Positions 3,458 to 63,368 are shown, counted from the stretch's first letter. The stretch is DNA of 64,000 nt from Eledone cirrhosa (GCA_964016885.1 OZ024751.1:31992001-32056000); one strand, 5' to 3'. Notes: generated by a model not told the origin, from the sequence alone. Made by a program: numbers and translations.

Positions 3458-3820
3458 TTGGTGTGGGATGCTTAAAGCGTCCGTATGCGCTAGGCCGTTT
3501 GAGCACTCGATGCTTTTACAGAGCAGAGTATAATATCACATAAGAAACGGAGAATCAGTGGTGCGACGAATAAGATTTATTAGACATATTACAATCGTTT
3601 CTCTGGCGACCAGCTCGAGGCAAGATTGATGCAATGATCAAACCTGACTCTGAAATCACAAGACCCTCAGATATGTCTCGATTCTACGAAGTTGGAAACT
3701 CTGCTTATTCGTCGCACCACTGATTCTCTGTTTCTTATGTGATATTATATTATACTCTGCTCTGCTAAAGCATCGAGTGATCAAACGGCATACCGCTTAC
3801 GGACGCTTTAAGCATCCCAT
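3458..3820. mobile_element. Family A inverted-repeat element between (TA)n tracts; HHR-like motif in spacer (minus strand)
   Basis: Arms 3464-3574 and 3704-3819 are reverse complements. Single-arm relatives at ~41890-42125 and ~54721-54890. Confidence 0.8.
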
Positions 3821-3885
3821 ATATATATATATACATATATATATATATATATATATATATATATATATATATATATATATATATA

Positions 3886-4010
3886 TACAAGAGATGGCGA
3901 TATGAACAGACTTATTTTTTTATCTATCTTTCTATTTCTTTAATTTCTCATTCTATTTTCTGATGAAAGACTAGCGTCCGAAACATTAAGACTCATTGTA
4001 CTGTGTCATT
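3886..4010 (+). mobile_element. Family B PLE 3' repeat remnant with minimal HHR
   Basis: CTGATGA (3960-3966)-a-agac-tagc-gtcc-GAAAC. Homologous to 48160-48330, which follows a GIY-YIG remnant, and to 63380-63530. Confidence 0.75.
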
Positions 4011-4769
4011 TGCTTTGTTATTTCTGTTTACATTTTGTTTTGACATTTGTCTAAGAAATGAAAACACCTACAATATTACAATGAAATACAACTTACTTCT
4101 GATTTATTTATAATTTTTTCTTTATTTTCTATTTTATTTTATATTCTATTTAGTGATTTATTTATCTATTTTTGTTCTTGACTGGGTTGAATGAAGGGTG
4201 AGGATTCCACGAAGGGGCCGCTGGTCTACTAAGGTGTTTAGTTATCTCTGGTATAGATCCACATTCTGTGGTTAAAAAATTCCCTTCACAGCCATGTGGT
4301 TCTTGGTTCGATTCCAACGGGTGGAAATGTTACCTTAGATTCAAGCTGATCCCTATCCAGAATTTTGCCTTTCATCTTTGAAGGGGTGAATAAATAAATA
4401 AAATATCAGCCTAGGGTAGTAGATTTTAGGAATCATTAGACTGTCAGTGGCGGCCTACCTGGGTGGTAAGGCAACATAGTTTAATAACATATGGCCCTGT
4501 AGAGGAATCTTCCCCATCCACCCCGTTTCAAGTATTAAGGTTAAGATTCCTACACTCTGTTCCTCTCCGCCCACTCAGAAGTTTTGGAAGCCCTAGAGGA
4601 GGTATTGCTCTCTCTCAAGACTAATCGATATATATACACACACACATATATATATGGTGATTTTTTCATATATATATATATATATATATATATATATATA
4701 TATATATATATATATATATATATATATATATATAGTAATAATAATAAATTTGAAGACTAAAATCGAAAG

Positions 4770-4963
4770 AGGGCTCGATAAGGATAAATATATATCAAAT
4801 ATATAAGAACCGTAGAGCAAATATTTATTAAAATAACCGATTAAAGTTTAAGCAAAGAATCGCTGCTTTCACACTTAACGGGATCTTCTGGTTAGTTTCA
4901 GAAGATCCCGTTAAGGGTGAAAGCAGCGATTCTTTGCTTAAACTTTAATCTGTTATTTTAATA
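4770..4963. mobile_element. Family C palindromic HHR element
   Basis: Arms 4826-4889 and 4899-4963; (TA)n on both sides. Other copies at 22186-22263, 29690-30090, 39858-39968 and 57665-57783. Confidence 0.85.
4894..4944 (+). ncRNA. Type-I hammerhead-like motif with variant core (CAGAAGA, CUU site)
   Basis: Stem I AGUUU/AAACU; core CAGAAGA; stem II U-CCC-GUUAA-GGG-U; GAAA; stem III AGCAG/UUGCU; H17=U. Confidence 0.7.
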
Positions 4964-4981
4964 TATATATATATATATATA

Positions 4982-5079
4982 CAGGGTGTCCCCAAAAATG
5001 TATACACACTTTGATTACCTGTTCAGGCAATATTTATTAGAATGCTGTTGAAGTGTGTATACATTTTTGAGACACCCTG
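4982..5079. mobile_element. Tc1/mariner-type MITE
   Basis: ~30-bp TIRs CAGGGTGTCCCCAAAAATGTATACACACTT / AAGTGTGTATACATTTTTGAGACACCCTG with TA on both sides; second copy at 54296-54375. Confidence 0.85.
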
Positions 5080-5360
5080 TATATAGATGTGTGTGTTAGT
5101 TGTATGTATGTATATACATATATATATATATATGTAGATATTATAAAATATATATATACTTACACACCACACATACATATGTTATCTATTTATGTTCATA
5201 CATGGAACAAAACCACTACCTAATGTTTCAAAGCCTATTAATATTGACCACATCTCCAGATTCTAAGAGGGATTAAAATTGTGTCTTAATCTTCATTGGT
5301 GTTTGCCGTCAAACTGATTTGCGATTCGAAACAGCAACAAAAACTACAATAACAACAATA

Positions 5361-59699: not shown

Positions 59700-60100
59700 T
59701 ATAAACGTTAGAATATGTGTAATAAGGCCAAGACAATGCAGATATGGACATAGAAAAAAGAATGCAATAGTGAGAGATATTGATGAGAATTCGTCTTTCA
59801 CCTTGAATTTATTTAAATGTCCTTAATTTTCGAGATAATATCTCTTCTTCGGAGGGAAGTAAAAGTCTCTGACCAGCGTCTAAATTTCCAATGAAGCCAT
59901 TGGCTTCATTGGAAATTTAGACGCTGGTCAGAGACTTTTACTTCCCTCCGAAGAAGAGATATTATCTCGAAAATTAAGGACATTTAAATAAATTCAAGGT
60001 GAAAGACGAATTCTCATCAATATCTCTCACTATTGCATTCTTTTTTCTATGTCCATATCTGCATTGTCTTGGCCTTATTACACATATTCTAACGTTTATA
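59700..60100. mobile_element. Family O ~400-bp palindrome with HHR variant on each arm
   Basis: Axis at 59900 (gcca-t-tggc); CCU-CCGAAGA-A-GAGAU-AUU-AUCUC-GAA-AAUU-A-AGG at 59945-59979(+) and mirror 59821-59855(-). Confidence 0.85.
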
Positions 60101-60416
60101 CCTCATTACACAATGCTTCAAGTGAACTATAACCTCCTCCCATATATATATATATATATATATATATATATATATATATATATATATATATATATATATA
60201 TATATATATATATATATATATATACATCCACACATATATATATATGGATGTATATATATATATATGTATATATATATATATATATATATATATATATATA
60301 TATATATATATAAATGGCTTCTATATATATATATATATATATACATACATACATATATATATATATATATATATATATATATATATATATATATATATAT
60401 ATATATATATATATAT

Positions 60417-60828
60417 GTAACGAAGGAATTGTGGTAAGGAACCAGATGGACCATAACGCACCAAAGTACTCAATAGTTAGTGTAGTAGAATGGGTAATAG
60501 GAACAAGTATGACCCCGACGGCAGAGCTCAAGCCGTTTCGACGGCTATTTCTGGAGTTCAGAAATAGCCGTCGAAACCGCTTGAGCTCTGATGTATATTA
60601 TAAAAGTATATATGTATATGTATTTATATATATATACATACATAGATAATAGGAACAAGTATGACCCCCGACGGCAGAGCTCAAGCCGTTTCGACGACTA
60701 TTTCTGGAGTCCAGAAATAGCCGTCGAAACGGCTTGAGCTCTGCAGTCGGGGTCATACTTGTTACTATTATCTATGTATGTATATATATATAAATACATA
60801 TACATATATACTTTTATAATATACATCA
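60417..60828. mobile_element. Two abutting family F palindromes
   Basis: Axes at ~60556 and ~60709; the second palindrome spans 60589-60828. Confidence 0.85.
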
Positions 60829-61704
60829 TGACATGACATTCTATGTAGTGATATATACATCTGTTTAATCAATGTAATAAAACATTTGCACTTAGTTTGA
60901 CTAATTAAGAAATTAATATTTTAAAGCTTTATTTTAATTTATTTTTTACTTTATTTAAATTAATCAAATTTTGTGAATTTTTTTAAATTAAAATGTTTTA
61001 GTATAAAAATTCATAGAATTTAATATAACTTAGTAAATAAATACATTAATTTTATTTATATACTTATTAATTTATGTTTTTTTTAATATATTTATTAATT
61101 TATATTTTTAAACATTAATTTGAAAAAACAACTACAAAATACTATTTATATATATACACACCCACTTATATAGAGGTTTTAATAGCCTTTCATTTCCGTT
61201 TATATAAATATATATACATGCCCCACCACACACACACACACACACACACACACGTATATATACACACATATATTTTATATTTGTTTTTAATCATTTATTT
61301 TAAAATGCCTTCTCTACAAAGAATTTTTTTAATAGGCTCTCCGTTTCCGGGTAATCATATCCACACATACACATATACGTATATACATACATGTATACAT
61401 ATATATATACTACATATATACAAATGCGTATGCATACAAACATACACAAACCTACCTGCACTCATAATATGGATATATATATATATACATGCATACACAA
61501 ACTTATATGCATATATACATACACACCCATACATACATACATACATACATAAATGCATGCTTACATAGTACACATACATATATACATACGTAAATGCTTG
61601 CAAAAATACATAATAAATACACACATAACTGCATATATACATACATATATAAATGCATACAATATATACACACACCTACGTACGTAAATGCACACATATA
61701 TGCA

Positions 61705-62680
61705 ACAAGTTTGGTATTTTTCGGCATTGATTTTCGTTTCAAACTTAGTGAGGCTAACGTTAGGATTATTGGAGGTCTTTATCAAGGTTGTTGACAAGGA
61801 CGAACAATTCATCAACTTTTCCTGCCAGACCATTAATATAGTCTTTTAATTATAGTTTTCTGATGTTCCCCTCTACTTTCCCCTGTGTTGACTGTCTTCA
61901 CGATTTACACGGATATCGCTCATGATCTTTAGGAAGATGCTCAACAGTGTAGGTCATAGGAGGTTGTCCAGATCGATGCTTACAGTGACACAAACCATTC
62001 TCCGATGATGTCTTGTACAAGTTCGTCTCTAGTTGCTTTGGCACAAAGTTGTTGTATGGTATGAGTTAATTTCATTCCAGGCTCTATCGGATGCCGTCTT
62101 GAAGTCTATAAGAACATGCATGCATGATCCCGCAACTCTCGAGGGATTCGTAAGGGCGCTGTATTGACATACGGCGTTTCTAGAGCATTTAAAAAACCTG
62201 GTAGAGTCGATCCCTTCTCCAGGTCTGAACACAGCAGATTTCTTCCAGAGAAGGATAAAGCGAGTGAGAGAATGGAAGTGAAAAAGAACAAGGTACAGCT
62301 ATTTCTGCTGTTGAAGATATTTTTCACAGAGGGTACAGAGGCTAAAGATTTGCTGAGTAATGCATCTACCTTTATGGAAGACTATTTCTTCCTCAGCTAC
62401 GATGCGTTTTGCCTGAGTTGTTCAGTCTTTTCAGAATGATTCTGATTTTGCATAGGTGACGTTGTTCTGCATGGTACGGTGATTCTACTATAGTTTGACG
62501 TTGCCTTTCTTGAGAAGTCCTATGATGAGTGACTGAGTCCAAGGTGTTGGTCATTCACCTGTCTGCTAGATCTTATTGCAGACGGCCTTGAGTATGTCTA
62601 TAGTAGCATTTCCTCCATGCTTCTCTAGTTCAGCAGGGATGTTTTCAACTCCAGCAGACTTTCTGTTTATCAGCAATCTT
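61705..62680 (-). pseudogene. Degenerate RTE-clade reverse transcriptase fragment
   Basis: Minus-strand remnants KSAGVENIPAEL, PTPWTQSLII.L.KKG, FRPG, VLIDFKTASDRAW and KINAEK, with stops and frameshifts. Confidence 0.75.
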
Positions 62681-63194
62681 ACTAACAGTAAAGAGTAGTC
62701 ATCCTTATTGGAATAATTATGCACATACAACGAAACTTTTTATGTTACACTCGTCCAGAATATTATTTGTGAGTCATGGTTTGGGTTTGCGGTGGCTTTT
62801 CCCTAGAATCTCGCTAGCTACCTCTTTTGTACGAAGGGTCAATAAAATCTCTCCAGTCATATTCTGCCCCCCCCCCCCTTTGTTAAATACGTGAAACATT
62901 TTTGAAAAACATTTGATGAAAATTTTTGAGAAAGGTTTTGGGGTTTATTTTTGAAAATTTTGAGAGAAAAAATGGGAAAAAATATTTAAAAAAATAATTT
63001 TCAGAAAAATAACCCCAACTCTGGACTTAAACCTACCACTAAATCTAAACAACCCTAACTCTAACATTATCCCTACACGCCTAATATATATATATATGTG
63101 TGTGCGTGTGTGTGTGTGTGTGTGCGTGCGCGCGCGCGCGCGCGTGTGTGTGTGTGTGTGTGTGTGTGTGTGTGTGTGTGTGTCTTGATGGTCT

Positions 63195-63368
63195 GTGGTA
63201 CTGGGACCGGGAAGACCACAAATCAGAGACGCCCTCAATACATGGTGTGATGCAGAGTGGGTATATTAGTAAATGTAGAGGATCGACCGCGAGCTGGGTG
63301 GTTTCAGCTAGTTACCTCATCAAGCCGAAACCATCGAGCTCGCGGTCGATCCTCTGCTTCTACCAATA
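63195..63368. mobile_element. Family P inverted-repeat element with HHR-like motif
   Basis: agaggatcgaccgcgagct...ggtttc / gaaacc...agctcgcggtcgatcctct; minus strand tTGATGA-ggtaactagct-GAAACC...GGTC. Confidence 0.65.

Follow-up and report, generated by a model that had tools for sequence, protein, structure and literature searches.

How do many DNA families that bear no resemblance to each other come to share one palindromic design within a single stretch of a genome? This question is raised by 64 kb of one strand of the Eledone cirrhosa genome (3.0 Gb; GCA_964016885.1 OZ024751.1:31992001-32056000; hereafter "the window"), where a first-pass annotation had described inverted-duplicated mini-elements that adjoin (TA)n tracts and carry hammerhead ribozyme (HHR) motifs. 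Our analysis suggests that most of these palindromes are head-to-head twins of the 3' ends of Penelope-like elements (PLEs), probably formed by double priming on one uncleaved sense RNA. The feature is of a known kind: the PLE families and the one retrozyme-like family are new, but the architecture of their insertions has been published. New is the regularity with which one long arm is joined to one short arm, not the head-to-head architecture.

Palindromic elements at (TA)n tracts

The window is AT-rich and dense in microsatellites. All 15 sites named in the first-pass annotation are inverted duplications, 77–451 bp in length, and lie where they had been placed; one copy of family C needed correction, since this third twin begins near position 29873 and not at 29690. 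A masked seed scan, which superseded a first BLAST list lacking O, H and F1, detected 24 inverted repeats in the window and 0 in each of 20 block shuffles. The association with (TA)n was equally clear. At 14 of the 15 sites, one or both outer ends had a TA run of at least 8 nt no more than 12 nt away; counted by ends, this was true of 23 of 30, compared with 6.5% of the non-TA positions. Target-site duplications are unreadable inside (TA)n, and the TA tracts may have been lengthened at twin insertion or later. Alignment across families was nearly nil, in agreement with the earlier description, with only a 17-nt match between A and N and a 38-nt match between N and Q. At most sites the two arms stop at different points of the tail, as had also been noted, and about a dozen unpaired arms of the same families occur in the window. 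Nesting of twins in the TA flanks of twins from other families builds clusters, for example at 29485-30304 and 59045-60780.

Relation to Penelope-like elements

Copies of families O, H, C, J, K and F elsewhere in the genome run into PLE open reading frames (ORFs) with reverse transcriptase (RT) and GIY-YIG domains, representing at least three PLE types. This extension in the 5' direction supports the proposal that the palindromes are ends of PLE pseudo-long terminal repeats (pLTRs) targeted to (TA)n. The alternative proposal of a non-autonomous class is not supported for these six families; it holds for the element at 28012, here called family Y, and may apply to A, N, P and Q.

A search of the genome with the O arm returned 1058 candidates, among them many opposed pairs 0–5.5 kb apart. 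The O unit measures 3133 bp (tandem period), and its ORF contains Pfam RVT_1 (E about 1e-15) and GIY-YIG; among named proteins, the closest match belongs to Octopus bimaculoides (61%, covering 46% of the query). The O tail reads into the ORF and the C tail reads into the C ORF at loci L124 and L316, which indicates partial tandems whose pLTRs include the ORF start. The O element of the window represents the shortest in a graded series of forms, with arms of 9 bp to more than 3.7 kb and, in some, tandem arrays in both arms. At L024/L025, an O insertion has tandem arrays on either side of the axis (~9.5 kb in total) and a repeated templated patch at the junction.

The RT/GIY-YIG ORF of H, with Pfam hits as for O, has a CX4CxxC linker and a CCHH motif; at the motif level, the CX2-5CxxC linker and the CCHH endonuclease place H in the Neptune clade. 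The C and J ORFs have a CxCx5C linker, no CCHH, and CxxC and CxH around conserved E and N residues; DKT was seen in C only, where RWK appears as RWR. Pfam was silent on the C and J ORF fragments, and the link rests there on motifs and tblastn. The long arms of F and K match Hydra-type proteins (tblastn). We thus label C and J, and by similarity F and K, as probable Hydra-type PLEs, according to motifs and not to a tree. For A, N, P and Q, no shared coding sequence was found upstream in the top 20–30 copies fetched, with no search dedicated to N. A search for a solved PLE structure found none and gave only weak matches to telomerase and bacterial RTs.

With their perfect inverted arms, the palindromes could be mistaken for MITEs (miniature inverted-repeat transposons) with terminal inverted repeats, or for fold-back artefacts of sequencing or assembly, and the K axis was bridged by no Logan contig, these contigs being short. 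However, arm length and axis vary from copy to copy, the two ends differ by a fixed tail, the arms continue into RT ORFs, and CpG sites have decayed independently in the two arms. An artefact is also at odds with the same junction and flanks having been assembled on two contigs (L096/L106 and L186/L190), and with three opposite-strand joints of O in Logan contigs, with TA at both end sites. We assign this explanation next to no probability. For O, H, C, J, K and F, ordinary MITEs are refuted, as no fixed terminal inverted repeats end at the same base.

One long and one short arm

In the following, the long (L) end is that of the tailed arm and the short (S) end that of the tail-less arm, with tails of 41–98 nt. 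A 66-nt query from the O 3' end gave at least 40 exact and 2 partial hits, all on one contig (C1), from which 25 insertions were listed. Twins accounted for 21 of these 25. All 34 O twins (the 21 on C1 and 13 elsewhere including the window) combine one long and one short arm. The long O arm ends ~40 nt past the near site, and two long arms, read by eye, measure only 9 and 13 nt. An automated tally of eight families, based on 331 loci and the window, comprised 226 pairs, namely 178 LS, 4 LL, 2 SS and 42 with an unclassed end. Hence, 178 of the 184 clear pairs were LS, and two H pairs scored as LL are LS by eye. For Y, a script classified 4 LS, 1 SS and 15 unclassed pairs, while inspection by eye gave at least 8 LS and 1–3 exceptions. 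Outside this genome, one metagenome scan for the rule gave a single locus, which lacked internal repeats.

TA was found at one or both ends of 167 of 172 LS pairs. The 172 LS junctions included 79 with 1–7-nt microhomology, 7 with longer microhomology, 16 that were blunt and 70 with inserts, which are often copies of nearby arm sequence. All 7 short ends checked are at TA-like motifs. This gives a weak suggestion that only the short start pairs with the target, weak because the C long end is also followed by TAT.

The junctions bear on the possibility that the palindromes form a separate class of non-autonomous elements, copied as whole hairpins from palindromic masters. One junction is indeed common to all 30 C loci chosen by a junction-spanning query, A, N, P and Q have no ORF link, and Y is non-coding. 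However, C copies selected by their tail have many different junctions, and the recurrent C junction also occurs with the tail on the other arm (L101). Moreover, six families grade continuously into ORF-bearing arms, and the master form of Y is a direct tandem, not a palindrome. We therefore see only a small chance that such hairpin masters exist.

Shared source and coupled 5' extents

In 20 O twins, the two arms differ by 0.17%, against a median of 0.62% to other copies, with 15 of the 20 falling under that value. For shared variants in six families, disagreement between arms was counted 40 times at non-CpG sites (181 expected), whereas at CpG sites it was counted 12 times (14 expected); C had no qualifying site in this comparison of arm variants. 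Shared variants together with independent CpG decay indicate that both arms derive from one source and have aged separately, and separate ageing argues against both assembly fold-back and ongoing conversion.

An A/G site of H at ~+168 (window 13651 region) differs between arms and is never G in both, and a similar recurrent one-arm G-to-C change occurs in stem III of C. These one-arm changes may reflect a hot spot, RT error, editing, ranking bias or a hairpin sequencing error.

The 5' extents of the two arms are coupled. Both arms pass the +1 region in 17 O twins, neither in 13 and only one in 4 (Fisher p = 1.2e-5); for the C1 set alone, the counts were 8/11/1/1 (p = 3.7e-4). The corresponding tally for five other families was PP 30 rows (18 insertions by eye), PT 4, Pd 2, TT 98, Td 20 and dd 24. 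In 3 of 17 long O twins, the two arms have their stops within 10 nt (permutation p = 0.009). Which arm extends further 5' varies among the 34 O twins: it is the tail-less one in 16 and the tailed one in 9, with equal extents in the other 9. In some O twins, a tailed arm of 9–13 nt faces a tail-less arm of 1.6–2 kb.

The +1 position refers to an initiator-like A, and we interpret it with the general concepts of the transcription initiator and of cap copying. Arms that hold the seed start at +1 to +9 of this A in 48/60 cases for F, 15/22 for K and 29/60 for C; the K and C counts come from repeat runs after the first reference had carried a variant base. Few arms of F, K and C start just upstream of +1, and the rest read through. 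For O, 14 of 68 ends fall within a 17-nt window at +1. A G precedes +1 in 11/11 F cases (including one double-counted locus; in about six, the G does not derive from the partner arm), 8/8 C cases, 2/3 O cases and 1/1 Q case, which would fit a copied cap without proving it. An initiator-like motif and a promoter have been reported in PLE pLTRs (PMC3846280, PMC2377424). A splice acceptor was rejected as the nature of the +1 motif, as the arms include the AG and K has none.

These extents speak against self-priming or fold-back, published as a hypothesis for an antisense RNA (PMC3846280). In this model, a single cDNA (complementary DNA) or antisense RNA folds back close to its 3' end, and copying then proceeds in the direction of the tail but halts before it. 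Such a process would give head-to-head arms from one molecule, common variants and a shorter copied arm, and perfect-palindrome junctions exist at L027, L034 and L158. It requires, however, a tailed arm whose 5' extent equals or exceeds that of the tail-less arm, the opposite of what is seen in the 16 O twins mentioned above. Many junctions have loops of 0–1 nt, and the sharp edge at the initiator-like +1 with its extra G points to capped sense RNA. Fold-back, which the first-pass annotation had offered as one option, thus conflicts with the data, barring a regular loss of sequence from tailed arms once they are inserted, and we regard it as very improbable. Because the tail-less arm can reach further 5', two primings are needed; this observation and the anatomy of the twins support the other option offered, priming on both target strands.

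Probable route of insertion

Two primings could have used two RNA molecules from one source locus, held in one dimer whose asymmetric complex forces different starts. This arrangement explains the long-short rule, the common subfamily variants and very unequal arm lengths, and it does not need the first cDNA to be displaced from the RNA. It does not easily give the +1 coupling, because +1-limited and read-through priming sites are both available in a tandem source, and the equal truncation deep in the ORF in 3 of the 17 twins is no easier to obtain in this way. The strict asymmetry, the +1 coupling and the equal stops in combination favour one RNA copied twice, and we consider two RNAs from one locus unlikely, although it is the most serious of the alternatives.

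In the preferred reading of one RNA copied twice, the PLE protein would nick both strands of a (TA)n tract, and each target 3' end would prime reverse transcription on the same uncleaved sense RNA. The two starts would be fixed at opposite edges of the 40–100-nt tail, the far edge for one and the near edge for the other. Both cDNAs would grow towards the 5' end of the RNA and be joined by 1–7-nt microhomology, a short templated patch or a template jump, and each would prime the second strand of the other. With the priming site 60–290 nt after the initiator-like +1, a messenger RNA (mRNA) primed at the first pLTR would yield mini palindromes only. The minis would thus be run-offs to the mRNA 5' end, and kilobase arms would need read-through RNA from tandem copies.

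Several points weigh against this reading. All steps are read from DNA scars, the +1 is a putative transcription start, and two RNAs from one source locus explain the shared variants equally well. At one H site, the two arms carry different bases in 9 of 14 twins. The G before +1 is absent in K (0/4 free cases) and weak in H (3/8 free), and in many F and C cases it might come from the partner arm. The rule has exceptions, LL at window A and L292 and SS at window 60637 and L084, and Y follows it less regularly, with several unclassifiable pairs. Single arms make up 4 of the 25 O insertions on C1, and many arms in the window are unpaired. The tally under-samples SS pairs in C, F, J and A, whose queries included the tail, and the 30 C loci were chosen by a query across one junction, with duplicates only partly removed. 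In addition, an in vitro study saw the start site not to differ between strands (PMC11167929).

Folding of the tail regions revealed no common significant structure (z = −0.26, 0.88, −0.34 and −2.08). The otherwise unalignable tails of F, N, P, Q and K have a short ATTGAG(TAC) motif in common, which might be a protein-binding signal.

Hammerhead motifs

A strict type I HHR descriptor gave 5 hits in the window, whereas 60 shuffles averaged 0.05 (max 1); with a relaxed descriptor, there were 9 hits, compared with 0.18. HHR motifs in the window thus exceed the chance level. The canonical CUGANGA core occurs among window copies only in H, K, J and Y, and in the second C copy (C2), where it is created by the junction. 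Variant cores are present in A (CUGAGGG with a 62-nt stem II), C (CAGAAGA) and O (CCGAAGA); the window copies of N and P are HHR remnants, and that of Q is a decayed remnant without a canonical core. Family copies of A, N and Q contain canonical cores. Family F has no recognisable core. Hence, the claim that each family carries an HHR or a remnant holds for most families, in canonical, variant or remnant form, and fails for F. Across copies, the core is fixed as CAGAAGA (U4A) in C and P and as CCGAAGA (U4C) in O, a young family with an intact ORF.

Rfam reported no HHR at gathering level among the 150 window matches listed of 561, and none for K or J; the window scan was dominated by sub-threshold microRNA matches to TA-rich DNA. 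A Q copy gave Hammerhead_3 at E = 0.12, below gathering level.

The arms extend across the predicted HHR cut site. This accords with one part of the earlier proposal, an uncleaved template; re-ligated RNA, its other part, is not needed. Cleavage by the HHR was rejected as the 5' boundary of the arms, since the 5'-end peaks are upstream of the core. The HHR does not make the palindrome, because F forms the same twins without a core. It appears to be a passenger in twin formation, near the axis because it is just downstream of the likely transcription start.

Elements in the window

From left to right, the window begins with the old and rearranged twin of family A (3458..3819), in which both arms are near the long end; its variant core is at 3670 on the minus strand, and no ORF link was found. 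The first C twin, the pLTR of a Hydra-type PLE, occupies 4735..4968 with a long left and a short right arm, a CAGAAGA core at 4899 on the plus strand and a predicted cut after 4939. A family F twin follows at 7832..8038 (short left, long right arm; no recognisable HHR core), again the pLTR of a Hydra-type PLE. The H twin, a Neptune-like PLE pLTR, extends over 13290..13722 around an axis at 13485, with a tail of ~41 nt on the right arm only and one minimal HHR per arm (cores at 13443, minus, and 13527, plus).

A 5'-truncated PLE arm at 19850..22018 on the plus strand was absent from the earlier list. It contains a broken RT and GIY-YIG ORF (~19873-21595), then a pLTR with a canonical HHR core at 21830, then (TA)n, and no partner arm was seen. 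Other copies of its pLTR form twins in the fetched loci. The C remnant twin at 22186..22262 is the copy in which CTGAAGA arises from the junction itself.

The Y twin (27961..28411; long left, short right arm) consists of a retrozyme-like, non-coding tandem unit of 422 bp with one minimal HHR (core 28247, minus). In L162, this direct tandem is present in 2.8 copies at 99%, with one minimal type I HHR in each 422-bp unit and a longest ORF of 51 aa. Y is likely a non-autonomous retrozyme that would use PLE machinery in trans.

The J twin (29485..29666), also a Hydra-type PLE pLTR, has a long right arm with an HHR core at 29535, and its left arm is cut after 37 nt. The third C twin (29873..30088) displays the family's recurrent junction, and its right arm ends at an alternative TA-like site. 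A diverged, F-like remnant palindrome at 30321..30399 has no TA adjoining. The K twin (32199..32595), a pLTR, has an HHR in both arms (cores at 32306, minus, and 32394, plus) and a tail of ~98 nt on the right arm only; in long K copies, a remnant of a Hydra-type endonuclease is located upstream. The decayed Q twin is at 44055..44224; family copies contain a full type I HHR, and no ORF link was found.

Towards the right end of the window, the N twin (58875..59045; long left, short right arm) retains an HHR remnant, family copies have the canonical core, and no ORF link was found. An extra twin of the same design at 59108..59634, with a long left and a short right arm, was also absent from the earlier list. 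The O twin at 59700..60141 is the 3' end of the young 3133-bp RT and GIY-YIG PLE. Its tail (60101-60141) is on the right arm only, both arms stop 3–4 nt past the likely +1, and the variant cores are at 59948 (plus) and 59852 (minus). Two adjoining F twins fill 60417..60780, the first (60417-60590) with a long left arm and the second (60637-60780) with two short arms. The last is the old P twin (63185..63366; family copies 82–90% alike), which has a long left and a short right arm, a degenerate HHR and no ORF link.

Further inverted repeats without a family are present at 6857-7156, 22260-22446, 35808-36225, 4993-5069 and 33513-33574; those at 6857-7156 and 22260-22446 had no match among the fetched family loci. 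A twin-like element at 37103-37604 has its right arm split by a ~180-bp repeat resembling a short interspersed element (SINE). This repeat is bounded by a ~12-nt direct repeat, and the same SINE-like repeat flanks many fetched loci. Single arms of another family with an HHR core are found at 3941-4060 (core at 3960), 48245-48294 and 63450-63499. A minisatellite with a 32-bp unit in 55.5 copies occupies 25194-26968.

Implications

One published account lists the origin of PLE inverted repeats and of the one-sided tail among the open questions (PMC8557442), and another leaves open what follows priming (PMC11167929). The long-short rule, the coupled 5' extents and the shared variants across at least three PLE types make PLE integration directly testable in the existing in vitro system, and these quantitative rules contradict the published antisense self-priming idea (PMC3846280). 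Through family Y, a tandem retrozyme is connected with insertion of the PLE type. In genome annotation, the MITE-like units should count as retrotransposon scars.

If transcribed, the twins form perfect hairpins. The octopus has an exceptional potential for double-stranded RNA (dsRNA) and hyper-editing, and lizard Penelope is heavily edited (PMC5625713). As a hypothesis, the twin hairpins could be linked to the dsRNA hyper-editing of the octopus. A wider proposal, which we judge to have somewhat less than an even chance, is that endonuclease-bearing PLEs, and the retrozymes riding them, normally integrate by double priming. A dimer would cut both strands and copy one RNA twice from two fixed starts, with each cDNA priming the second strand of the other. 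All insertions would then be born palindromic, and mRNA run-offs would produce thousands of perfect mini-hairpins as a main source of hyper-edited long dsRNA in octopus-type genomes.

Comparison with known systems

Neither an obligatory long-plus-short rule nor double priming on one RNA was found for PLEs in the literature searched, which was mostly open-access; the older PLE literature may hold such a model. In the twin priming of L1, a single RNA is primed from both target strands, and microhomology serves to join the cDNAs. The second L1 primer anneals far upstream at variable sites, which gives inversion without duplication as a minority event. Here, in contrast, both starts are fixed near the 3' end, and the resulting inverted duplication is the main outcome.

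Insertion units of endonuclease-bearing PLEs have been described as a pLTR with an adjoining inverted 5'-truncated copy, often a 30–40-bp tail at one end, and a (TA)n bias (PMC8557442, PMC3846280, PMC2377424). The elements of this study resemble these units in their head-to-head arms of variable size, the tail on one arm, the HHR in the pLTR, microsatellite targets, partial tandems and an initiator-like motif (TCACT, as in K). In those accounts, as far as they are available, the inverted copy is present "often" and the tail is "optional", whereas here 21 of 25 insertions are twins, the tail is almost always on one arm and reaches 95–98 nt, both arms can be tandem arrays, and the 5' extents are coupled. 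Opposed HHR pairs 100–700 bp apart have also been noted (PMC4209133).

For the Poseidon PLE of Anolis in vitro, both strands were cut and extended, two internal starts bounded the tail, and uncleaved RNA served as template (PMC11167929). Further likenesses to our families are a priming site near the ORF start and a dimer predicted there. The available text of that report links the two starts neither to the two strands of one insertion nor to the inverted copy.

C and J resemble the Hydra clade (PMC8557442) in the CxCx5C linker, the lack of CCHH and the flanking CxxC and CxH, in DKT in the case of C, and in (TA)n targets and HHRs. Unlike that clade, C has a CAGAAGA core and F has lost its core, and our assignment uses motifs rather than a reference tree. 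Family Y, a non-coding 422-bp tandem with one minimal type I HHR per unit, matches the non-LTR retrozymes (Li et al. 2026, bioRxiv 10.64898/2026.07.22.740005). Whereas the abstract of that preprint bases its argument on distribution and phylogeny and invokes rolling-circle spread, Y provides evidence at the level of insertions for mobilisation by PLEs, as it enters (TA)n in the form of head-to-head twins that have long and short ends.

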